Assembly (NCBI GenBank): GCA_963664815.2
Contig: CAXXHB010000003.1
Span: 1,952,001-2,016,000, forward strand
DNA: 64,000 nt
Source: Spirochaetota bacterium
GTDB lineage: Bacteria; Spirochaetota; UBA4802; UBA5550
Direction: 5' to 3'
In this document: piece by piece, positions 11,863 to 58,466 of the stretch
Layout of the letters: each line of letters starts with the position of its first letter
How positions within the stretch are numbered: the stretch's first letter is position 1
Program-made: the position numbers and the translations under genes
Notes under the pieces: model-generated
The model's input: only the letters and a program-made list of their open reading frames with translations
The model's database searches: none
Told to the model about the DNA's origin: nothing

Positions 11863-11939
11863 CAGCCGTCCTCCGATTCTGAGATTTGCATAATCTTTAA
11901 TCAGCGATTTTTTAGCAGCTGCGTTATGTTTTTATAAGG

Positions 11940-12056
11940 CTAATGTCCTGTTTCTTGGAAGATGATCTGCTGACATACCGGTTTTACCAAAATAGGACCA
12001 TGTGCGATCAATAAAACATCTTTTTTAGGGCTTACTTTTATTGCTAAAATATCCAT
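11940..12056 (-). pseudogene. 38-aa ORF, probable truncated terminal cassette gene
   Basis: RBS GGAG and ATG follow the minus-strand GTTATATGC cassette start at 12094-12086. Confidence 0.35.
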
Positions 12057-12085
12057 TTTATTTCTCCGTCAGTTTTTGGCGTATG

Positions 12086-12146
12086 GCATATAACTCTCAG
12101 AATAGTATCTCAATCTTCTCTGGTTGAGATACTATTCAAGTTGGCC
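12086..12146. repeat. attC-like hairpin site
   Basis: GCATATAAC (12086-12094), perfect 14-bp IR GAATAGTATCTCAA/TTGAGATACTATTC (12100-12113/12124-12137), GTTGGCC (12140-12146). Confidence 0.55.
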
Positions 12147-12520
12147 GGCTTTTTTATACTATAACTTTGACACAGCTCATTTTGACAGGACCAATACAAT
12201 CAGTGCATCGCCTGTTATATGCCGCCAGGTAGTCCCTGTGAGCCTGTCTAAGTGCAAAAATACTGTTTGCCCGACAGAACTGCTTGAGCAACAGCCAAAC
12301 ACAATATTAATGGATTTTAAATTACCGGATTTATAATTGCAAGAATAATTCGTATGTTGAAATTTGAATAAATAAACAAACGCATCTTTATAACAACCAA
12401 TGTATCTACTTTTAAAACACTGTTAAACGGCATTCCCAAGAATAAATTATCAGTATTTCTTAATCATCAGAATAAAAGTATCCCTTCATGGTCTTTTTAT
12501 AGTTCCATAATCATAAGATA

Positions 12521-12710
12521 TTAATATGCAGATAATAATCTACAACCGCTCTGCTTCGCCGGAGGTGACCAATACCTCACCGGTTCAGGAATCTCTTTTA
12601 CAACAAGCCTTCCGGTTTTGCATGCAGGGCAGCATGAAACGCGACAACTATCTTGGCACATAGGGCAACAGCCTTCTTTTTGTTTCTGTGTGATAGAATT
12701 CCGAAGTACT
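12521..12710 (-). pseudogene. IS91-family transposase C-terminal remnant (subfamily A)
   Basis: Frameshifted pieces YFGILSHRNKKKAVALC and CPACKTGRLVVKEIPEP...SPP typical of IS91 Y2 transposase C-termini. Confidence 0.6.
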
Positions 12711-12712
12711 AT

Positions 12713-13288
12713 CAGGGCAAACAATCTTGCCCTTTGCCGGATGTTTCCCGGTCAGCTGTCAGCCCCTGGCGGAGCAGTATGAGCTGAGCAAAGAGCTTCC
12801 TGAGGATACAGCTTTCCTGTTCTGGAAATATTTCAGGATTGATATAACTCTCTGCAGGGAGTGCGAAAAGGGACACATTCATTATATCCATGGCCTGTCG
12901 ACTTACGGTTAGCTGTTATAAAGAGTATAGCTGTACTTCACAAATTTAAAAAACTGTTTCATAGAGAGGATAAGTATGTCCGGAGATTTTGAGATTTTGC
13001 ATAAAATCGCCATTCACAGTCTATCAGATAACTGTAGAAATAATTATTTTACGGGATTATTATTTTTTCCGGTAAGATCATCGGATTTTTACTGTATGTT
13101 ATTTCAAAGATCGGGATAAAACGGTATTCAAATTCCTAAATATACTGTTCGATCCCAGTGGTTTCGTCCAACAGAGTCTTAACATAGCTGCTGTCTGAAG
13201 ATTGAAATCATCTGTTTAATGTTTTTATACCTCTAATAAAGATTAGCGGTTTTTTTGAGACAACTACGTTAAGACTTCTATAAGTTAT
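12713..13288 (+). mobile_element. IS91-family 3' end remnant (copy 1): transposase tail, oriIS-like motif, attC-like hairpin
   Basis: Near-identical to 15362-15929; DITLCRECEKGH tail; ATTCAAATTCCTA oriIS-like motif near 13126. Confidence 0.8.
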
Positions 13289-13290
13289 GC
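13166..13290. repeat. attC-like hairpin (copy 1 of IS91-linked site)
   Basis: GTCCAAC...AGTCTTAACATAG...CTACGTTAAGACT...GTTATGC. Confidence 0.55.
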
Positions 13291-13317
13291 GATGTTTTAG
13301 GCTTTAAAGAATAAGTT

Positions 13318-14541
13318 TTAACTATTGTTAAATTTTAACAAACCAGAATTATCATGGAATAAATTAATTATTTCGTTCGTCGTAATTTTTTTCAATAAAA
13401 AAGCTTCAAAAATTTCAAGCAGACTTTTCGTCTCAATTATCAAACTTTCATTTCTTTTTGCTAACTGGATTTGTTTTTCGTGAATTTGTTCGCGTTGTAG
13501 TAACTCTTTATTCCTTTGATGACAAATAATTAACAATGATTTTTTTGTTTTTGTTGAAATACTTTCACTTATTTTATCAAGATAATTCTGATAATGAACA
13601 TCCAATTGAGAAATGTGTTCGGATTTAACGTTTGTTGATACGCCCTTAATTTCACCAATAAAATTAATCTTCTCCAGTTCTATCAAAAAATCTTCATTTT
13701 TATTATCAATAAATCCTGTTAAATCACAATTTAATATTTGTTCAAGAATTTCAAATACAACATTAACCAAATCATTACCGTTTAAATAAAGAATCGATTT
13801 ATATTTATTGTTTCGATTAAGAAAATCATTTGCTTCTTGAATATTATTTTGTGCATTTTCTATTATTGAAATATTTTCTTGTATTGTTGATTTATGTTTT
13901 TTGTCATCATAAAAAATTACATCATTGATCCAAGATGGTATATTATCTTTTATTTTTATAAGGTTTAATAAATTTAAAAAATCGAATAATTCTTCAGTAT
14001 TATTAATTGAAAGTGTTGTTAAAATAATGTCATCAACTTCAATGGTTGTTGCTTTATTACTTAAAATTGATTTTGTTAAAACAATATGGTCAACATTAAA
14101 ATAAAAATCAGAACTAATAGTATGTGTAGATATTTGTGTTTGTGTTCTTTCAAACGTTAGTGATGTATAAGGTAACTTTAAATATTTAATTAGAATATTT
14201 ACTTCCAATTCATGCAAAATATTTTTTAGTTTACTACGACTCATATACTTACCAGAGAAATAATTATATTCAAAATTGATATCCTGTGGATAAATATATA
14301 TGATTTTTGTGTCTTGTGAGTTGTTTATCATCGTCGATAAGTGTATTAAATCGTTCGCTATATTGACTGAGTTATAACTATTCTTCGTATTACTCCATAT
14401 ATTGGAACTCCTTAAGTCAATTATATTGATTTGATACATATCAAGTGAGTCGGGATTATTAATCTCATTAATTGAAATATCATCTGAGTCAAAAGAATTA
14501 TAATTGCTTCGAGTAAGTAATTGTATCAATTTTTTATTCAT
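13318..14541 (-). CDS. Cassette protein with C-terminal PD-(D/E)XK nuclease-like domain
   Basis: EDFLIELEKINFIGEIKG motif after a coiled coil; very AT-rich. Confidence 0.6.
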   Translation of the reverse strand: MNKKLIQLLTRSNYNSFDSDDISINEINNPDSLDMYQINIIDLRSSNIWSNTKNSYNSVNIANDLIHLSTMINNSQDTKIIYIYPQDINFEYNYFSGKYMSRSKLKNILHELEVNILIKYLKLPYTSLTFERTQTQISTHTISSDFYFNVDHIVLTKSILSNKATTIEVDDIILTTLSINNTEELFDFLNLLNLIKIKDNIPSWINDVIFYDDKKHKSTIQENISIIENAQNNIQEANDFLNRNNKYKSILYLNGNDLVNVVFEILEQILNCDLTGFIDNKNEDFLIELEKINFIGEIKGVSTNVKSEHISQLDVHYQNYLDKISESISTKTKKSLLIICHQRNKELLQREQIHEKQIQLAKRNESLIIETKSLLEIFEAFLLKKITTNEIINLFHDNSGLLKFNNS

Positions 14542-14556
14542 AATAATTTCCTAAAA

Positions 14557-14974
14557 GTCTGGTAGGTCGGGGAGTTTGCACCCCCTTTCCCCCATAAGAA
14601 CCGTACGTGAAAGTTTTACCACAGGCACTTCCTACGGTCGCCCTCCATACGGCTCAAGCCGTCTAAAGCTGATTATACAACCAGCCGTTGTTATCTGTTT
14701 GTATTCCCATTTTTCTATAGCAGAAATAATCAGAATCTTCTTTTAAAAATGGGTTCCTGTCAAGACTTATCATTCTGTGCCGTACAATTTTAATGTGTCC
14801 CGCAGTAATGAGAATCTCCTCTTCAGAGCAGAAAGTCCAATCCCTGTTTCCTATGCGTTTCCAGTACCGGTTTTTAAGCCATAAAGAATTTTTCATCGGG
14901 TGCCTGAATCTGCCCCATCTCCATAGAGCCTGAAAAAGAACAGTATCGGGATTTTTAAAGGCTTCCTTTGACAT
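14557..14974 (-). mobile_element. Group II intron 3' fragment (end of IEP ORF, domains V and VI); 5' part deleted
   Basis: Minus strand GAGCCGTATG...CACGTACGGTTC (domain V, AGC triad), domain VI ending CCTACCAGAC. Confidence 0.85.
14663..14974 (-). pseudogene. Group II intron reverse transcriptase/maturase C-terminal fragment (CL-like lineage)
   Basis: LWRWGRFRHPMKNSLWLKNRYWKRIGNRDWTF...IVRHRMISLDRNPF. Confidence 0.85.
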
Positions 14975-15554
14975 TCAGGAAAATGCTTTTATTCCACCTC
15001 GGCAAAGAACTTAAAAACGGTTCTTTAAAGACACCTGACGGTATTGAAGATATTGCAAAGCTTTTTAATCAGCTTGCGCATATTCCATGGGTTGTAAATT
15101 CCCAGCCTCCCGGCAAAGGTAAAAAGAAACCGGTAAACATAGTCCGCTATCTTTCGAGATACGTTGCTAAAAGTGCAGTCAGTGATAAACGGATACAGAA
15201 AGCGGAGAATGGAAATGTTTACATCCGCTATTACAATAGAAAAAGGAAGCAGAGTAAAATGGAGGTTGTTACAGAGATTCAATTTATGAAACGGCTGGTG
15301 CTGCATATTCTTCCTAAAGGATTTAAAAAGTCCGGTTCTTCGGTTTTATGGCAAACCGTAACAGGGCAAACAATCTTGCCCTTTGCCGGATGTTTCCCGG
15401 TCAGCCCCTGGCGGAGCAGTATGAGCTGAGCAAAGAGCTTCTTGAGGATACGGCTTTCCTGATCTGGAAATATTTCAGGATCGATATAACTCTCTGCAGG
15501 GAGTGCGAAAAGGGACACATTCATTATATCCATGGCCTGTCGACTTACGGTTAG
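14968..15554 (+). pseudogene. IS91-family transposase, 5'-truncated and frameshifted (subfamily B)
   Basis: RYLSRYVAKSAVSDKRI (Y2 motif), FMKRLVLHILPKGF, then shift to ANRNR...DITLCRECEKG. Confidence 0.85.
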
Positions 15555-15929
15555 CTGTTATAAAGAGTATAGCTGTACTTCACAAATTTAAAAACTGTTT
15601 CATAGAGAGGATAAGTATGCCCGGAGCTTTTGAGATTTTGCATAAAATCGCCATTCACAGTCTATCAGATAACTGTAGAAATAATTATTTTACGGGATTA
15701 TTATTTTTTCCGGTAAGATCATCGGATTTTTACTGTATGTTATTTCAAAGATCGGGATAAAACGGTATTCAAATTCCTATATATACTGTTCGATCCCAGG
15801 GGTTTCGTCCAACAGAGTCTTAACATAGTTGTTGTCTGAAGATTGAAATTATCTGTTTAATGTTTTTATACCGCTAATAAAGATTAGCGGTTTTTTTGAG
15901 GCAACTACGTTAAGACTTCTATAAGTTAT
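15362..15929 (+). repeat. IS91-family 3' end (copy 2), direct repeat of 12713-13288
   Basis: ~570-bp near-identity ending at AAGTTAT; oriIS-like GGTATTCAAATTCCTATATATAC at ~15764-15786. Confidence 0.85.
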
Positions 15930-15931
15930 AT
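15807..15931. repeat. attC-like hairpin (copy 2 of IS91-linked site)
   Basis: GTCCAAC...AGTCTTAACATAGTTG...CAACTACGTTAAGACT...GTTATAT with internal CCGCTAAT/ATTAGCGG hairpin. Confidence 0.55.
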
Positions 15932-16034
15932 GAAGGCGGCGCGCTGAATATGAAAAGTCGGACGAAGACAGGACGTCTGAGGCCGTTGAAAAATCTATTT
16001 GTTTTGTACTAAAAGAAACAAAATTTTTTATATC

Positions 16035-16064
16035 TTGACAAATAATTGGTTTATTCATTATATT
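16035..16064 (+). promoter_or_regulatory. Candidate sigma70 promoter for three-gene cassette
   Basis: TTGACA (16035-16040), 18 bp, TATATT (16059-16064). Confidence 0.45.
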
Positions 16065-16166
16065 ATGCACCTATAAGTGTTAATAAATATGCCATATCTA
16101 GAGTTTTTTGTCTAGTATCTATTAATTGTTTCAGTTGCTTTTTGAATAATTAGAAAGCCTTCTTTT

Positions 16167-16934
16167 TTGAAATTAAATTGTTTAAATGAAAATATTATTA
16201 TGAATGACGAAAATATCTTAAAATTGCCAAATATTAACAAAATAAAATACCAAAGTAATTTTATTCGTTTGGCTGTATGTGAATTGCGGTTTCCAACTCT
16301 ACTTGAATTGGAAACTAAAGAGCCTGCAAAATTTCAAGCAGCAATAAGAAAAGAATACCCATATTATACAAAAGGTAAAAACATAAATATTGAACCCGGT
16401 AGTGAAAACCCATCTCTTGAAACTGTTTACAATTTTATTTCAAAAGATCAGAGTTGGACGATTGGTCTTAAACCTTCATCCATATCGCTTGAAACTAAAG
16501 CATATAAAAATTTTAGTGAATTTCTAGAACGCTTATTAAAAGTAATTGATAAGGTAAAACCAATTATTGATACAGATTTTTTTACTCGTGTTGGTTTGAG
16601 ATATATTGATACTTTACCAGTAAAAACTGAGCCAGTCAATGAATGGATTAATCCTGAGCTTACAAACCAACTTATCAATGGGGAACTCGGTAAGCCCGGA
16701 AGTTATTGGCAAGAAATTGTTGGAAATACTTTTTGTGGTAAATATACATTTCGACATGGAATAAAAAATAACAATCATAATGATTATATTCTAGATTTTG
16801 ATTTTTATGATGAAAATGTAGAATTAAAAGATATTGGAACAAAAATTAGAAATTTACATGATGAGAGTATTAAATTATTCTTTTGGTCTCTTGGAAAAAA
16901 AAGTATAGAATATATGAATTCACAACATCAATAG
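16167..16934 (+). CDS. TIGR04255-family-like protein
   Basis: AVCELRFP N-terminal strand, SISLETKAYKNFSEF, RVGLRYID, YILDFD. Confidence 0.8.
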   Translation: MKLNCLNENIIMNDENILKLPNINKIKYQSNFIRLAVCELRFPTLLELETKEPAKFQAAIRKEYPYYTKGKNINIEPGSENPSLETVYNFISKDQSWTIGLKPSSISLETKAYKNFSEFLERLLKVIDKVKPIIDTDFFTRVGLRYIDTLPVKTEPVNEWINPELTNQLINGELGKPGSYWQEIVGNTFCGKYTFRHGIKNNNHNDYILDFDFYDENVELKDIGTKIRNLHDESIKLFFWSLGKKSIEYMNSQHQ

Positions 16935-16944
16935 GATAATAGTT

Positions 16945-17379
16945 ATGAATTTGATAACAGCAACAACTACAAAATCAGATGATATGTATAAACTGGATAA
17001 TGGTAGTTTAACAAGGTCATCATTCGATGAAATAGAAAAGGATTTGGACGATTATTCTTCATTACGAAATTGGAAGAACCAAGACCTTAAACGAACTAAT
17101 TATATAGATTCTGATGATTATATTATTGAATTTGATAAAAATAAATCAGAAGTTCAAATATCAAATGAAAATCGAATAACATTATTGGCTAGAAAGTATA
17201 TATCAGGAAAATTGTCTCTTGAAGAAGAATCTCGACTGCTTATTGAAAAAGAACGAGTTAAACAACTAATTCCACTTGTCACCATAGAAGATTATAAACT
17301 TGTTGGAGATATGCTGGCAGATGTAAAAAAAATTCAAGATAAACAAAAAGCTATCAAGGAAAAACTAAATATAAAATAA
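16945..17379 (+). CDS. Hypothetical protein (middle gene of cassette operon)
   Basis: RBS AGGA; 10-bp and 4-bp gaps to neighbours. Confidence 0.7.
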   Translation: MNLITATTTKSDDMYKLDNGSLTRSSFDEIEKDLDDYSSLRNWKNQDLKRTNYIDSDDYIIEFDKNKSEVQISNENRITLLARKYISGKLSLEEESRLLIEKERVKQLIPLVTIEDYKLVGDMLADVKKIQDKQKAIKEKLNIK

Positions 17380-17383
17380 ATAT

Positions 17384-18007
17384 ATGGAACCATTCATATA
17401 TCCTCAGATAAAACATCGGCGTACCCAGACACCTCCAAAATTCAAGCGTTATCAATCATATAAAAAGTATTTAAAGGTTGAGTTTGAAAACAAGTGTATC
17501 TATTGTAGAATGCCTGATGGCTTAAAAGGAGATGCTTTTTTCGGCGTTGAACATTATAAGCCATCAAGTAAATTTAAAAGTTTAGAATGCACTTACTCAA
17601 ATTTATATTATAGTTGTAATACTTGTAACAGTAATAAAGGCAATTTTTGGCCCTCAGCACGACAATTAATTAAAAATTTATTTATTCCGAATCCATGTGA
17701 TCATATTATGATTCAACATCTTAAATACGTTGATGAGTATGTAAAGTCAAAGTCTGATACAGGAGATTTTTGCATAGAATTATTACGATTAAATGAAGAG
17801 AGTGTTGTTGATTATCGTAAATATGTAATTGATACAATAAAGATTCTTAATAAAGAACTCTCCTCTTTAAAATCTGATATAATTGAGTTTGAAAAATTAA
17901 AATTAAGTGATAAAAATAAATTAGACGAAATAAAATCAGCTATAAATGAAACAAATGAAAATATTGAAAGAATAGATAAACATATTCAACGTCTTACTGG
18001 AAAATAA
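17384..18007 (+). CDS. HNH endonuclease
   Basis: KCIYC...VEHYKP...NLYYSCNTCNSNKG, IPNPCD. Confidence 0.9.
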   Translation: MEPFIYPQIKHRRTQTPPKFKRYQSYKKYLKVEFENKCIYCRMPDGLKGDAFFGVEHYKPSSKFKSLECTYSNLYYSCNTCNSNKGNFWPSARQLIKNLFIPNPCDHIMIQHLKYVDEYVKSKSDTGDFCIELLRLNEESVVDYRKYVIDTIKILNKELSSLKSDIIEFEKLKLSDKNKLDEIKSAINETNENIERIDKHIQRLTGK

Positions 18008-18033
18008 TTAATATTACTCTTTTTATAATTCAT

Positions 18034-18074
18034 ATTTCAGAAAAAGCGGGCAGGACGCCAGCTTTTTCTGAAAT
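18034..18074 (+). terminator. Hairpin after HNH gene
   Basis: TTTCAGAAAAAGC / GCTTTTTCTGAAA inverted repeat. Confidence 0.5.
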
Positions 18075-18099
18075 CAGTAAAAAGTCAAGCGCCGCTTTC

Positions 18100-18197
18100 A
18101 TATAACGTTTTGCTTACCCGAAGTTGCGCGGCCTTTTGCGCAATTTGCCGCAGGCCAAGTGAGGTACTCCGAACGCAGCGGGTAAGCTTTGTTATAT
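18100..18197. repeat. attC-like recombination site
   Basis: ATATAAC - GCTTACCCG ... CGGGTAAGC - GTTATAT; GC-rich internal hairpins in AT-rich context. Confidence 0.75.
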
Positions 18198-18280
18198 GCT
18201 GAAAGCGCGATCATGAAATGTTTTGAGCAAGCGAAGCACGGATGCTGAGCTTGTACTAACGGATTATTATTAAATTTCCC

Positions 18281-18952
18281 TTATAATGGTTCCCATGTTT
18301 TAATAGGTTCTTGAAATTCACCATCAATTTCATCCGGTTTAAACGTGAATAAATAATTTTGCAACCATAAGTATTTATCTCTAATTTGTACTTTGTTTTT
18401 TATGTCACTAGAATTTGTTTTTACCATATTTTTTAAAACATCATATATTTTTTTCCAATTAGTATTATCAATAATATGCAATTGATAATTATTACCGTCT
18501 CTTCTTATTAAATTTTTTTCTTGAAGTGTGGAAAAAGTACCTTTATTTTTTTCAATCTCAATTATATTTGGGTTAATTAAAATTCTGGGATATGTTGCTA
18601 TTTGCTCTAACTGATAAGCTTCTGATAATGCTAAACTATAAGTTATTGTATCGTTTTCAAAATGTTTATTAAAGGATGTTCCTCCTCTGATTAACAATCC
18701 ATTTTCCATAAAATTAATAAATATATTTTTCAATATTTCAAGAAAATATATGACATTGTTAGTATCGTTATAAGCAATGAATAATGAATCCGATATTGAT
18801 TTATAGCTTATATCCGTTTTGCTAAAACCTTGTAGATATTGAAAAGATGATTGTAGCTTTTCTTTAAATAACTCTGTATTTTTTCTTTCATCATCTTCTA
18901 TAAATTGCTTATAACCAAGTACATCTAAAAAAGCATATAATTTATAACTCAT
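18281..18952 (-). CDS. Class III nucleotidyl-cyclase-fold protein (putative)
   Basis: FLDVLGY, SISDSL, LIRGG, EAYQLE...YPRILI pattern; 4-bp overlap with ParA gene. Confidence 0.55.
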   Translation of the reverse strand: MSYKLYAFLDVLGYKQFIEDDERKNTELFKEKLQSSFQYLQGFSKTDISYKSISDSLFIAYNDTNNVIYFLEILKNIFINFMENGLLIRGGTSFNKHFENDTITYSLALSEAYQLEQIATYPRILINPNIIEIEKNKGTFSTLQEKNLIRRDGNNYQLHIIDNTNWKKIYDVLKNMVKTNSSDIKNKVQIRDKYLWLQNYLFTFKPDEIDGEFQEPIKTWEPL

Positions 18953-19977
18953 ATTGTTAACGACTCAACAATTTTTTTTATTTCATCTTTATATGCAATT
19001 AATTTTGTATTATATGTGTCCCAGACTTGACCATAAAACTTTTGATTTATTTCTGATAAATATGTTGAATCGTCTTGGCTGATGTCAAATATAGCTTTCC
19101 CTACGATTTGTGCAACTGGAAGTAGGGGCCCAAGATCTTCAACTTCTGATATTATTGGTTTGTTCCCTATTTCTTTAGAGTTGGATTTTAAAGAACCATC
19201 TTTGATACAAGACTTCAATTCGTCGGTTATTTTATTACTCCATACATCATATACCTTTTTAGCTTTTCCTTGATACTTTTGATATTTTTGGGAGATGGAG
19301 CCTAAAAATATTGGAAAGGATTTAGTTACTTCAATTCCGAAAGGTGATAATGTATCATATATTAGTTCATCAGTTTTTTCCCATTCATTAAAAAGATTTT
19401 TTAATACTTTGATTGCTAACATAGAAAAACGATCAGGACTGACTGGGATAAAAAATCCATCCGTTGCGAGAAAAGCAAGTCTTGTTAATGCACCACTACT
19501 GGGACCAACGTCTGTGATTATATAATCATATTTATTTCTATAGTCATCTATAAGTCTTTTAAAAGAAACATATGTATTTTTTTCATTAACTCTGCTTGTA
19601 ATTGCAAAATCAATTGCTGATGCAAAATATTGTTCTGCACGTGCACTAAACTGGAAATCGCCACGTATTAAATCTAAGTTTGGATATAATTTAGATTTGC
19701 TTATTACGATTTTTGAAGTATCAATTCGATGTGATGCTCCATCTATTCGGTCTTGAAAGGCGTCTAATATTGATGTTCCGGGTAAATCTTTTTCGGGATT
19801 ATCCATTATTTCAGTATTTGAAGCGAAAAATAATTCTGTTAAATTACATTGTGGATCTGCGTCTATTAGTAATATTTTTTTACCAAGAATTTTACTCAAA
19901 TAAACTCCAACATTAAAGGCAGTAGTTGTTTTTGAAACACCACCTTTATTATTATAAAATGTAATCGCCTGTATCAT
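18949..19977 (-). CDS. ParA/Soj-family ATPase (cassette cargo)
   Basis: NNKGGVSKTT deviant Walker A, IDADPQCNLT, YIITDVGPS. Confidence 0.9.
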   Translation of the reverse strand: MIQAITFYNNKGGVSKTTTAFNVGVYLSKILGKKILLIDADPQCNLTELFFASNTEIMDNPEKDLPGTSILDAFQDRIDGASHRIDTSKIVISKSKLYPNLDLIRGDFQFSARAEQYFASAIDFAITSRVNEKNTYVSFKRLIDDYRNKYDYIITDVGPSSGALTRLAFLATDGFFIPVSPDRFSMLAIKVLKNLFNEWEKTDELIYDTLSPFGIEVTKSFPIFLGSISQKYQKYQGKAKKVYDVWSNKITDELKSCIKDGSLKSNSKEIGNKPIISEVEDLGPLLPVAQIVGKAIFDISQDDSTYLSEINQKFYGQVWDTYNTKLIAYKDEIKKIVESLTI

Positions 19978-20041
19978 AGCTTCTCCTTCTCTTTGTACAT
20001 TTTTATAAATGAGGCCACGGATGGCCGATTAAAAAGTTTTT

Positions 20042-20135
20042 GCGCTTTTTGCATATAACTCTTTTCTATCCGAACAAACTTTCGCATAGTACAGGAAAAT
20101 TCTGTTAAAACCGAAAGAAAGTACGTACAGTAAAG
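20042..20135 (-). other. Candidate attI-like primary site between recombinase stop and first cassette
   Basis: Minus-strand GTTATATGC core at 20059-20051 with no partner hairpin on the integrase side. Confidence 0.45.
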
Positions 20136-21209
20136 CTATATATCCAGGGGACTCTTGATGCTCCTGAGTTTACCCGTACTTACATGTGTATAAATCATCG
20201 TGGTATCAGGACTTTGATGCCCTAATAGTTCCTGTATATATCGTATATCTATACCCTGTTCAAGCAGATGTGTAGCAAAACTATGCCTTAAAGAGTGAAC
20301 TGTAACTGCTTTTTTTATACCGGCTTTTACTACAGCGCGTTGAAAAATATTCTGGACAGATCTCCCTTTGATGTGGCTCCCATCCTCCTGCCCTTTAAAA
20401 AGCCAGTTTTCAGGATGATATATCTCAATGTAAGATTTTAAAAGGGCAAGAAATGTTTCGGACAGAAGAGTGGCACGATCCTTCCTCCCCTTTCCGCACC
20501 TTAAATTGATGGCACCCCTGCCAATGTCTATATCGCTCAGCTTTATTGTAACTGCCTCGTTTAGCCTCAATCCGGCGGAATAAATTAATGCAATAATTGT
20601 TTTATGCTTCAGATTTTCTATACTTTCAAGTAAAGAATGAACTTCAGGTTTACTTAAAACAACAGGAAGCTTTTTATCCCTTTTAGGCGGCGTAATTTCA
20701 TAAATAAAATCTCTCTTTAATACCTCACCATAATAAAATCTGAGAGAATTGATCATCAGCTGCACTGTCGCTGCGCTTAGATTTTTTTCTGAAACTTTGG
20801 AAGAAAGAAATACCGTTATATCCTGCTGTATAATGCTTTCAGGTTTTTTTTCAGAAAAGACAAGAAGATCTGCATTATAGTGAAGGTAGCTTTTAATTGT
20901 GCTGCGGCTGTATTTTCTTATTATAAGTTCATCTTTAAGCGCTTTAAGAAATTCATCCGGAAAGTCATTGTTGCCGTTGGCAGGTGTGGCATCACTGCCA
21001 ATGTATACACAATATTTCAGATTAACTACTGTTTCAAGCAGTCTGTCAAAGTTCTCTTTCCTGTCAGGAATATACCATATTTTTCCTGCATTATCCCATC
21101 TTCTGCCTGATATACCTCTGATTACTGTAAGCAATTCCTGATTATACATGAATTTTACAGCAAGATGAGAATTGTCAGACGAGGCTATATGAATTTCATT
21201 TTTATTCAT
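20136..21209 (-). CDS. Tyrosine recombinase with N-terminal HARP-like domain and SAM-like domain (integron-integrase-related, lacks I2 insertion)
   Basis: GLRLNE (R), GKGRKDR (K), HSLRHSFATHLLE (HxxR), LLGH, TTMIYTH (Y); N-terminal FMYNQELLTVIRGISGRRWDNAGKIWYIP. Confidence 0.9.
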   Translation of the reverse strand: MNKNEIHIASSDNSHLAVKFMYNQELLTVIRGISGRRWDNAGKIWYIPDRKENFDRLLETVVNLKYCVYIGSDATPANGNNDFPDEFLKALKDELIIRKYSRSTIKSYLHYNADLLVFSEKKPESIIQQDITVFLSSKVSEKNLSAATVQLMINSLRFYYGEVLKRDFIYEITPPKRDKKLPVVLSKPEVHSLLESIENLKHKTIIALIYSAGLRLNEAVTIKLSDIDIGRGAINLRCGKGRKDRATLLSETFLALLKSYIEIYHPENWLFKGQEDGSHIKGRSVQNIFQRAVVKAGIKKAVTVHSLRHSFATHLLEQGIDIRYIQELLGHQSPDTTMIYTHVSTGKLRSIKSPLDI

Positions 21210-21720
21210 TATTTAACTTGCTCATCATTGCAACCGGCTATTAATACGTATCAGAATTGCCGTTATTTCAATACATTTTTTCAAATATTCAAATAAATAT
21301 CAGGATTGTTTCCAAACCGGCATTTTTATAATCCTGTGCATAAAAAGATAATACAATATAAACTACTACCTGTTTTGCAACCAGCCCGGCTGTTATGTGA
21401 AACTTCACTATTACTCTTAAGGCGGTCTGCCGGTAGCCTGTATATAAACTGCTTTTCATACTTTATAAAATCCATAATTTCCTGAAGTTTTCTTTTATCA
21501 CAAAACCGGTAATCACGTTGTTGAGCTGGCTGCCGCGCAATGAAGGAATATGAAAAATGTTATAAGCACAAATCGTGCCGAAAACCGCAGTAGGCTGCAG
21601 TGATTATGCACCATCTGTCGCCATGTATATGCCTTTTATCCGTCACAAATCCGCCATGTATCCGGCGAAGTAACATCAGAATTTTTTTTGCTTTTCCCGG
21701 AAATTTTTTAAATTCCCCGA

Positions 21721-22009
21721 TTTCTTTAACCACACCGTTCCCCGGGTGTTTTTAAGTAAAACCGGAAATGTATCGAGGGGACCACTACAGGAAAATTGTT
21801 TTCTTAAAATATATTAATAATATCATTCGTCTGAACACGATTACAGGATTAAAGGATTGGCAGGATTTTGGTTCATGTGCTCTCTGTTGATCGCTTTGAT
21901 GCTGTTCGTAATGAAATATTATCAATATACCCGTGTCAACGATGGAACCGCACCTTCCCTTTTCTTTAACCACACCGCTCCACTGGTTTTTTATGTGAAA
22001 CCGGAAATG
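21721..22009 (+). repeat. Imperfect ~50-bp direct repeat, two copies 240 bp apart
   Basis: TTTCTTTAACCACACCG...AAACCGGAAATG at 21721-21770 and 21961-22009. Confidence 0.7.
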
Positions 22010-22015
22010 CTATAG

Positions 22016-22052
22016 TCACCCCTCGCCATTTGGAGAGGGGCCGGGGGTGAGG
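22016..22052. repeat. REP-like GC-rich palindrome
   Basis: TCACCCCTCGCCATTTGGAGAGGGGCCGGGGGTGAGG. Confidence 0.55.
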
Positions 22053-22166
22053 TCTGCATCGTGCATCATCTGATTCAGATTCAAATTCACTGCAGATTTA
22101 TGACAAAATCCCGACTCTGTTTACAGAGTATTCAGTATCGCTTCAATTACGCCTCAAACACGCTAC

Positions 22167-22712
22167 CTACAGCTTTAAACGCGCGTTTTTCTCTGCCGGT
22201 AACGGTGTTGAAACGGTATTGAAACGGTTTTTAACAGGGTCTACATACTGCTTAAGTACTGTTTTAACAGCTTCACCTCTGTCTTTTCCCGCATTAATAT
22301 TACTCTGCCCACCTGCTGTTCTGCTGTTTTCTGAATGGTAACCGGCATATTCTGTAATATCACCAGAAGCGGATACAACCACTGCATCCCCTGTTCCGCC
22401 GATTCGCGATGGAGTAACAGGTGAACCTGGAGCAATGCCGCGAAGGTATTCAGACATAAAAAGGTTGTACCCTGACTTTTTCTTCCTCTTTGCCCTGTTT
22501 CTGTAGAGAGCTTTCTCCTCTTCCGGAAGAACCTGCCAGGCCTTTACGCCGCCGCCGAAATTACCCCTGCACTTCACCTGCGGTTCAGTACGCGGATTGG
22601 AGGGAATTGTGCGTGCTTTAATGTAGATTTTACCATAACGCCTGTAAAGCACAAGATCGCCCATACCTCCATGCGCAGTTCTTAAATAGGGATGAAGCTT
22701 AACTTTTGCCAT
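22167..22712 (-). CDS. Basic DUF6266-like hypothetical protein with HMG-box-like motifs
   Basis: RBS AAGGAG; GGMGDLVLYRRYGKIYIKAR...NPRTEPQ...RGNF; W-L-EEEK-Y and SGYNLFMSEY. Confidence 0.6.
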   Translation of the reverse strand: MAKVKLHPYLRTAHGGMGDLVLYRRYGKIYIKARTIPSNPRTEPQVKCRGNFGGGVKAWQVLPEEEKALYRNRAKRKKKSGYNLFMSEYLRGIAPGSPVTPSRIGGTGDAVVVSASGDITEYAGYHSENSRTAGGQSNINAGKDRGEAVKTVLKQYVDPVKNRFNTVSTPLPAEKNARLKL

Positions 22713-22864: not shown

Positions 22865-23034
22865 TTCTGCTTTGCCCCTTCCGGGCGCCCGAGCGCAGCG
22901 ACAAAGTACCCTTGGGGTAGGTGCGGGGGCTGATAAGTCCAGGTTGCTGAAGGTATACTATACAGACAGTTCTGCCTTGCCCCTTCCGGGCGCCCGAGCG
23001 TAGCGACAAAGTACCCTTGGGGTAGGTGCGGGGG
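22865..23034. repeat. Two ~65-bp GC-rich REP-like direct repeats
   Basis: TTCTGC-TTGCCCCTTCCGGGCGCCCGAGCG-AGCGACAAAGTACCCTTGGGGTAGGTGCGGGGG at 22865-22929 and 22970-23034. Confidence 0.85.
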
Positions 23035-58206: not shown

Positions 58207-58283
58207 TACGGGATTTCCTGCGGATAGAGGTATCGAGCGCTAACGCATTCCACATTGTGCTTCAACAGTTTTATAATCAATAC

Positions 58284-58466
58284 CACAGCATATTTATGAT
58301 AAAATCCAGACTCTATTTACAGAAAAGTCAGTTTCGGTTTAATTACGCCTCAAACACGCTGTTGACAGTAATAAACGTGTATTTTTCTCTGTCTTAAACG
58401 GAGTTGAAACGGAATTGAAACGGTTTTTAACAGAGTCTTCATACTCCCTAAGATCTGACTTAACAG
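58284..58466 (+). repeat. Diverged copy of 22088-22270
   Basis: Shared AATTACGCCTCAAACACGCT and TTGAAACGG tandem units. Confidence 0.8.

Follow-up and report, generated by a model that had tools for sequence, protein, structure and literature searches.

An integron-like cassette array headed by a tyrosine recombinase without the I2 segment in a Spirochaetota bacterium

Software and mechanistic studies alike define integron integrases (IntI) through an extra domain bearing the I2 helix; it is this domain that is held to have made a Xer-like enzyme able to recombine folded single strands. A 64-kb stretch of a Spirochaetota genome (contig CAXXHB010000003.1, positions 1,952,001 to 2,016,000; hereafter, the window) raises the question whether an array of gene cassettes can be headed, and possibly served, by a tyrosine recombinase that does not have this domain. 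We consider it probable that the region is an integron-like chromosomal cassette platform, the adjacent I2-less recombinase most likely being its enzyme. We would class the region, a real cassette platform of the integron type whose integrase candidate is non-canonical, as a variant of the integron. Such a platform had been proposed in a first-pass annotation of the same DNA, and the recombinase gene, the cores, the hairpins, the IS91 and intron debris and the AT-rich cargo all proved to be where it had placed them; the proposal itself is borne out by complementary cassette ends, covarying stems and attI-like heads that are conserved up to the GTT core. The N-terminal domain of the recombinase, the other arrays of the same genome and the spread to other phyla, all described below, go beyond that annotation. 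The genome containing the window is denoted G000, and the complete genome of another species of the genus, G006.

Cassettes and folded sites

The array is read along the minus strand, starting at the recombinase gene. The attI-like site is followed by cassettes that are parted by folded sites bounded by ...AAC and GTT..., in the following order (aa, amino acids; nt, nucleotides; ORF, open reading frame).

20136..21209, minus strand: tyrosine recombinase, 357 aa, with a putative HARP-like N-terminal domain, a SAM_4 core-binding domain and a catalytic domain
20985..21209, minus strand: N-terminal domain of the recombinase (residues 1-75), possibly HARP-like, beta-beta-alpha-beta-beta-alpha-beta
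20051..20135, minus strand: attI-like stretch that separates the recombinase stop from cassette 1, with its GTT core at 20059-20057 (alignment of eight heads)
18200..20050, minus strand: cargo of cassette 1, a ParA/MinD-like ATPase (18949-19977) and a 223-aa protein (18281-18952)
18098..18199, minus strand: GC-rich attC site, 102 nt, consisting of R'', a 3-nt spacer, a 9-bp L stem, a branched tip, a 5-nt spacer and R'
15935..18097, genes on the plus strand: cargo of cassette 2, a TIGR04255-family protein (16167-16934), a 144-aa protein (16945-17379) and a PtuB-like HNH nuclease (17384-18007)
15792..15934, minus strand: proximal part of a long bipartite attC (R'' and the first hairpin), cut by an IS91 end at 15791
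13294..14556, minus strand: cargo of cassette 3, a 407-aa protein (13318-14541) of no known family; the cassette start is lost
13151..13293, minus strand: proximal part of the long attC in a second copy, likewise interrupted by an IS91 end; R'' is ATCGCATAAC (13284-13293)
12085..12223, minus strand: further attC-like site, with R'' (12214-12223) and R' (12085-12094) being 10-nt complements and an internal 15-bp hairpin
11923..12084, minus strand: last cassette, probably truncated, with a 38-codon ORF (11940-12056)

The genes of cassette 1 have the same direction as the array, and those of cassette 2 are inverted with respect to it. The GC content of the cargo (0.21-0.33) is lower than that of the flanks in the window (0.40-0.48). 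At its far end, the array adjoins an alpha/beta-hydrolase gene and other genes of housekeeping type.

In integron cassettes, the first bases after GTT pair with the cassette's own R'' before AAC. The units in the window are discrete cassettes of this kind. Cassette 1 starts with GTTATATGCA (from 20059 downward), which is the reverse complement of its end TGCATATAAC (18191-18199), and the start of cassette 2, GTTATATGAA (from 18106 downward), is the reverse complement of its end TTCATATAAC (15925-15934) at 10/10 positions; the complementarity spans 10 nt in each of these cassettes, the pairing in cassette 2 extending to approximately 18 nt. The start of cassette 3 is missing because an intron fragment abuts it, and no upstream complement of its own R'' was found. 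Exact copies of GTTATATGC occur four times in the window (12086, 12214, 18191 and 20051), and its variant ending in A, GTTATATGA, twice (15925 and 18098); all these copies are at unit boundaries, between 12086 and 20059. When one mismatch is allowed, the core motif is not enriched in the window (23 found vs 18.4 expected; 20 of 100 shuffles reach 23), hence the signal is in the placement at junctions and not in the number of copies.

The same arrangement recurs outside the window. For the long-type sites of G000 (n = 33), the complement of the R'' 8-mer within 8 kb lies upstream in 14 cases and downstream in eight. Ten of the 14 upstream complements, 500-3300 nt away, lie precisely where the preceding attC-like or attI-like site has its 3' end, and rare R'' variants (GTTATCTG, GTTAAATG, GTTATGCA and GTTATGCG) also are matched at the exact position. 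Most partnerless long-type sites come after an IS91-interrupted site. A strict scan for complementary 12-mer ends was dropped, as it returned mostly AT-rich chance pairs and few true cassettes. In G006, at least seven of nine variable positions match in 50 of 55 neighbouring site pairs, compared to 199 of 3249 non-adjacent controls. One cassette of approximately 230 nt is found at five places in the G006 array, between different neighbours each time, as would be predicted by unit-wise movement. Its ends are GTTATGTGGCAT and CAGCCACATAAC, and the copies fall within G006:C1:4371071-4416659 (loci L044, L144 and L145). We conclude that the array units behave as integron-type cassettes.

The content of the arrays differs between the two genomes, which was the comparison proposed in the first-pass annotation. 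The six cassette proteins of the window have no homologues in any fetched locus or elsewhere in G000; no nucleotide-level synteny with the window was seen in the fetched stretches of G006, and the orthologous G006 array has only attC sequence in common with it. Thus, the content is variable, with the caveat that the two species are not close, their recombinases being 57% identical.

The site at 18098-18199 scores 126.2 bits with R1, a covariance model built from the GC-rich site type. In its fold, a 3/5-nt internal loop separates the R stem from a 9-bp L stem, which carries a branched tip. We considered covariation in 17 sites of this type from eight genomes, with the pairs predicted by RNAalifold. 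Compensatory changes were observed in 13 of the 23 predicted pairs, and one-sided changes in none. At these pairs, 99.2% of the cells are paired, compared to 85.8% in shuffles (0/500 shuffles reach the observed value) and to 20-46% in controls with slid partners; the AAC/GTT cores are invariant in 17/17 sites. By fold and covariation, these sites are imperfect inverted repeats with AAC/GTT cores, as attC sites are. A structure-only scan (AAC, an 8-bp stem, GTT) gave 672 hits across the whole genome and was discarded as too unspecific.

The extrahelical L-box bases used for strand choice in integrons were not found in these sites: the 9-bp L stem is free of bulges in 15 of the 17, and the other two have one extra A. 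The asymmetry of the sites resides in the spacers (3 vs 5 nt in 16/17 sites) and in a mismatch at the eleventh pair of the R stem, C opposite A on the array strand and G opposite T on the other strand. This mismatch, identified by eye, is seen in sites of both Spirochaetota and Flavobacteriaceae, where the R stem continues beyond ten pairs; in G006, also by eye, the position is A in all 59 listed R' ends and C in 47 of 56 R''. Sites of the canonical array L140 differ from these in having L-stem bulges, yet follow the same AAC/GTT cassette logic.

The second site type is long and bipartite. Its proximal part, a repeat of approximately 145 nt (13151-13293 and 15792-15934 in the window), is present in about 33 copies in G000, with a sharp upstream edge at variable 7-10 nt ending in AAC. 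Uninterrupted long sites of approximately 190 nt (G000:C3:1373993 and 1375382) include a second hairpin and continue to ...CTTAAC followed by GTTAT.... Between the two hairpins, the 3' end of an IS91-family element begins at one fixed point in about 20 of 26 aligned copies, and both window copies are of this interrupted kind. Hence the four hairpins noted in the first pass are all real, but two of them (13166-13290 and 15807-15931) each represent one half of a long site that IS91 has interrupted, and not a complete attC. Portions of the further site at 12085-12223 recur in other G000 arrays; after the last cassette no recognisable attC was found.

A recombinase without the I2 segment at array heads

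The product of 20136..21209 matches the Pfam families PF13495 and PF00589 (2.7e-41). In alignment with IntI4 and XerA, the catalytic residues (R, K, HxxR, H and Y) are in place, a whole-protein fold search yielded recombinase folds only, and the protein has the tyrosine recombinase fold; its closest relatives in both sequence and fold are IntI4 (2a3v) and then archaeal XerA. The protein passed the XerA-type model NF040815 (235.3 bits, cut-off 220), whose product name also covers 'integron integrase', and failed the IntI model TIGR02249 (220.7 bits, cut-off 265), as well as the XerC and XerD models TIGR02224 (183.1 vs 335.15) and TIGR02225 (177.5 vs 329.6).

The match to TIGR02249 is in two stretches, with model positions 180-234 unmatched. 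In the alignment with Vibrio IntI4, residues 86-261 correspond to IntI4 residues 4-181, and residues 279-355 to 241-317, while the 17 residues 262-278 face IntI4 residues 182-240. The multiple alignment shows the same gap: a segment of approximately 41 residues with the ...ALERKYP... motif, present in seven canonical IntIs, is missing, and the IntI-specific extra domain near patch III (the I2 helix, approximately 35-40 residues) was not found in the protein. As was claimed in the first pass, and judging by the sequence, the recombinase is not a canonical IntI. The I2-less proteins and the canonical IntIs form separate clades in a quick tree (36 rows), with support of 94 and 99, respectively (Shimodaira-Hasegawa-like approximate likelihood ratio test, SH-aLRT), and the two clades together are split from the two Xer-like proteins of the genome (SH-aLRT 99).

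N-terminal residues 1-75 form a separate domain in the AlphaFold2 model (predicted local distance difference test score 89.7). PF07443 (HARP) matches this part of the window protein with E 0.0056 and 16.6 bits, below the gathering threshold of 25, and at E<=0.05 it is found in 43 of 54 family members (best E 3.3e-6). A Foldseek search with the domain gave no match at E<=0.001; the HARP domain of SMARCAL1 (4o66) is at ranks 2-3, with a non-significant E of 0.024, probability 0.96 and template modelling score 0.43-0.47, and the DNA-recognition domains of XPB and MutS are at lower ranks. HARP domains bind branched DNA.

The link between this enzyme and the arrays is positional. The attI-like core GTTATATGC (20059 to 20051) is 77 nt past the recombinase stop, and all eight aligned array heads are conserved up to AGTT and diverge afterwards. 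Hence a putative attI is situated beside the integrase candidate gene, with probable insertion at the GTT core. Four further heads in G000 consist of a 3' remnant of the recombinase gene and an attI-like site. R1 detects 72 sites in G006 and gives 64 matches in the 128 kb examined there; 59 are on one strand, beginning 310 nt below the recombinase orthologue and extending over approximately 98 kb. Sites are downstream of, and co-directional with, the recombinase gene in G004, G006, G007, G009, G017 and G036, and in seven genomes of the order the I2-less gene is at the array head, in the same orientation and with a conserved attI-like spacer.

Full-length homologues of the recombinase are present in seven of eight genomes of the genus and in many genomes of the family and order. 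Canonical IntI (TIGR02249 above the cut-off) was found in none of the eight genomes of the genus, whose completeness is 73-97%, one being a single contig. In G000, which has two other Xer-like genes, no protein matches TIGR02249 above the cut-off and none of the matches spans the I2 positions.

Related loci were also collected from named genomes (n = 80); among the 12 that were aligned, nine are without the I2 segment and three have it. Downstream of I2-less genes, chains of 3-4 cassettes with complementary ends occur in Jejudonia soesokkakensis, a Flavobacterium, a Gilvibacter and Winogradskyella ursingii. Chains of at least three cassettes were observed in 4 of 71 downstream flanks, compared to none among 61 upstream and 36 shuffled flanks. 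By eye, the adjacent pairs fit in Jejudonia (3/3) and in the Flavobacterium (5/5), and in an Ignavibacteriota locus the cassette logic fits with a one-base bulge. The I2-less gene is at the array head in at least four Flavobacteriaceae; related genes were also found in archaeal and Aquificota records.

Possible mechanisms and known systems

If the adjacent recombinase is the enzyme, the following course of events may be proposed. The recombinase gene reads toward the attI-like site, and the cassettes downstream each end in a folded attC-like site. Strand exchange at the GTT core would probably serve both to excise and to insert cassettes, which would account for the complementarity between each cassette's start and its own R''. 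The enzyme, most likely this recombinase, would represent a separate lineage related to both IntI and XerA; its substrate would be the folded strand, and the HARP-like N-terminal domain might read the structure in place of I2. We also put forward, tentatively, a broader possibility, namely, a second, old integron lineage that either never had I2 or lost it long ago. There, folded attC hairpins would be recombined via a structure-binding HARP-like domain that reads the extended R stem with its fixed mismatch rather than bulged bases of the L box, and this system, in preference to the canonical one, would be the main cassette platform of Flavobacteriia and of a part of Spirochaetota and Ignavibacteriota.

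Several observations weigh against assigning the array to the I2-less enzyme. Of 41 relatives, four have a canonical IntI, and two of these four belong to the same family; a canonical IntI may act in trans or may have acted in the past. R1-type sites were not found in G010, G027, G029 and G034, all of which have a full-length homologue; their sites may be of other types. Five public runs from two studies cover 39-90% of the window stretch, with no RNA run listed as containing it, and in the contigs of the four that we examined there was no clean excision or circle joint, these contigs being short and broken at repeats. The tree has two Xer outgroups only and does not resolve the branching order among the clades, and the HARP assignment is weak. 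Finally, in the literature, the I2 helix is described as required for attC recombination by IntI1 (PMC7790495), and recombinases without intI_Cterm near attC sites are held not to be IntI (PMC4889954).

Contig joints at 13169/15816, 13292/21118 and 17967/19550 were considered as traces of recombination and rejected, since their sides are 24-32 nt long and repeat copies or other organisms explain them. One locus of the same order, L056 (G028:C33:33360-35958), contains two divergent canonical integrase genes back to back, with 460 and 370 bits for TIGR02249.

If the I2-less recombinase were engaged in Xer-like resolution or island integration, the arrays could be relics of ordinary integrons, of the CALIN type (attC site clusters that have no integron integrase), the canonical IntI being lost or acting in trans. 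The scattered canonical IntIs and the described requirement for I2 would agree with this, as would the cassette logic that canonical arrays such as L140 have in common with ours and the fact that four of the five array heads in G000 retain remnants of the recombinase only. However, the I2-less gene heads arrays in the same orientation and with a conserved attI-like spacer in both the order and Flavobacteriaceae, the genus has no canonical IntI even in the complete genome with its 72 sites, and the sites, 116-245 nt long and with a perfect L stem, are unlike the canonical ones seen here. We therefore regard the relic explanation as unlikely. The same enzyme could, alternatively, move cassettes as double-stranded DNA in the Xer/Cre manner, with site folding playing no part; pdif modules are the comparison for such Xer-type movement. 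The enzyme, which has no I2, is equally close to XerA and IntI, and the covarying pairs are all Watson-Crick, with no wobble, hence both strands are equally palindromic in the stems. On the other hand, R'' and R' are 90-230 nt apart and would need folding or extrusion of the DNA to meet, one stem plan with its compensatory pairs is retained by sites whose sequences are unrelated, the spacers are asymmetric and, by eye, the conserved C-A mismatch at pair 11 makes the strands unequal. Movement as double-stranded DNA thus seems very unlikely.

It could also be suggested that the repeats are ends of IS91-family rolling-circle elements, and that the units were gathered by one-ended transposition and not by site-specific recombination. 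Indeed, both hairpin repeats of the window are at the ends of IS91 fragments of 440-820 nt, and the genome copies have a common end and variable truncation. Yet uninterrupted long sites exist without any IS91 sequence, as does the whole GC-rich site type, the IS91 ends begin at one fixed point within the site, complementary cassette ends are not expected from rolling-circle capture, and only one intact IS91 transposase is present in G000. The uninterrupted sites and the complementary ends largely rule out this origin, and we find it hardly credible. Recombination of cassettes by the adjacent I2-less enzyme remains the reading that we prefer.

Among known systems, the closest in layout are the 'reverse', or inverted-integrase, integrons of Spirochaetota, such as that of Treponema denticola. 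In both cases, the integrase gene reads toward the array with attI right after the stop, attC hairpins are bounded by ...AAC and GTT..., most cassettes are co-directional, with AT-rich content whose function is unknown or defence-like, and arrays may reach approximately 100 kb and have group II introns within attC sites. The system described here differs in the recombinase, which is without the I2-bearing segment and under the TIGR02249 cut-off, has the additional HARP-like N-terminal domain and falls into its own clade beside IntI in the quick tree. The attC sites also differ, being longer, with the L stem free of bulged bases and an R stem of 10-24 bp with the conserved mismatch at pair 11.

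Under the IntegronFinder rule (PF00589 and intI_Cterm), no IntI would be reported here, and the array would be called CALIN if the attC model sees the sites. In contrast to CALIN, these arrays are headed by a conserved recombinase gene and its own attI-like site, and hence are not orphan clusters. Archaeal XerA and bacterial XerC/XerD have the same fold and catalytic residues, XerA being among the top sequence and fold matches; however, the window recombinase is far under the cut-offs of both the XerC and XerD models, its N-terminal domain is absent from Xer proteins, and its position at the array head suggests no dif-type role. Two-gene elements of the IS91 family consist of a tyrosine recombinase and an HUH transposase. 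A similar arrangement exists in G000, where a 295-aa paralogue is directly upstream of an intact IS91 transposase, while the window recombinase bears the HARP-like domain, and its gene leads into attI and cassettes, with no transposase.

In the literature searched, we found no description of an I2-less integron-type system, the 21 integrases without intI_Cterm of Cury et al. (Supplementary Fig. S1) not being compared. In the IntegronFinder 2.0 report, a single complete integron is given for Bacteroidetes; if our reading is true, integrons would be under-counted in whole phyla. The system would provide a natural test of whether attC recombination truly needs I2, could represent an ancestral stage or an independent solution in the origin of integrons, and, as regards tools, would point to a new structure-specific recombination system. 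Named strains with the system are Jejudonia soesokkakensis CCUG 63830 and Winogradskyella ursingii HL4150.

Cargo, mobile elements and flanking repeats

The cargo was said in the first pass to be defence-like. This holds for one protein, the HNH nuclease of cassette 2, which matches PtuB in PADLOC (E 5.8e-22), and was not shown for the others: PADLOC gave no match for four of the six cassette proteins, and the 144-aa protein of cassette 2 has a very weak TIR-like match (E 0.0038). The PtuB-like nuclease occurs without the PtuA ATPase, its partners in the same inverted cassette (16167-18007) being the TIGR04255-family and 144-aa proteins. This trio may be an undescribed three-gene defence set.

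Three fragments of mobile elements interrupt the array.

14968..15791, plus strand: C-terminal half of an IS91-family transposase and the 3' end of the element (PF04986, 8.9e-20; NF033538, 82.3 bits, cut-off 125)
14557..14974, minus strand: 3' fragment of a group II intron (maturase C-terminus, domains V-VI), fused to the IS91 fragment
12710..13150, plus strand: second IS91 3' fragment, with direct repeats D1, D2 and D5 (tblastn)

The first IS91 fragment, identified by its PF04986 and NF033538 matches, is truncated and is outside the platform proper. The intron is represented by a 3' fragment only, with RF00029 at 14557-14657 on the minus strand (45.3 bits, gathering score 40) and a PF08388 match on the ORF 14663-14974 (E 0.00046, under the cut-off of that family). 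The junction between the IS91 transposase and the group II intron (approximately 14970 in the window) recurs at least four times in G000, including C3 positions approximately 1368590, 3198340 and 3209180. The 3' end of the intron is present in 18 copies in G000, with a different sequence and ORF after each.

The 3' ends of at least two IS91 subfamilies begin at the same point of the long sites, after ...CACTG-N-N-ATC (e.g., C3:1367561, 2541062 and 3204080). This fixed entry point looks like site-specific targeting of long attC sites by an IS91-type element. G000 has a single intact IS91 transposase (429.7 bits, G000:C3:3695479-3697423), inside another array and directly downstream of the 295-aa tyrosine recombinase; this recombinase is 37% identical to the window enzyme and has no N-terminal domain. 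The only intact group II intron (G000:C3:3194570-3196515; reverse transcriptase 436.9 bits, 3194810-3195907) splits a GC-rich attC into halves, hence the intron targets the middle of the site.

Two GC-rich repeats of 65 nt, 105 nt apart, are situated upstream of the recombinase gene (22865-23034). A 214-nt repeat at 22057-22270 recurs at 58253-58466 with 79% identity. The summed contig depth at 21368-22500 is high in all four public runs, and therefore this stretch is either repeated or common to other organisms.

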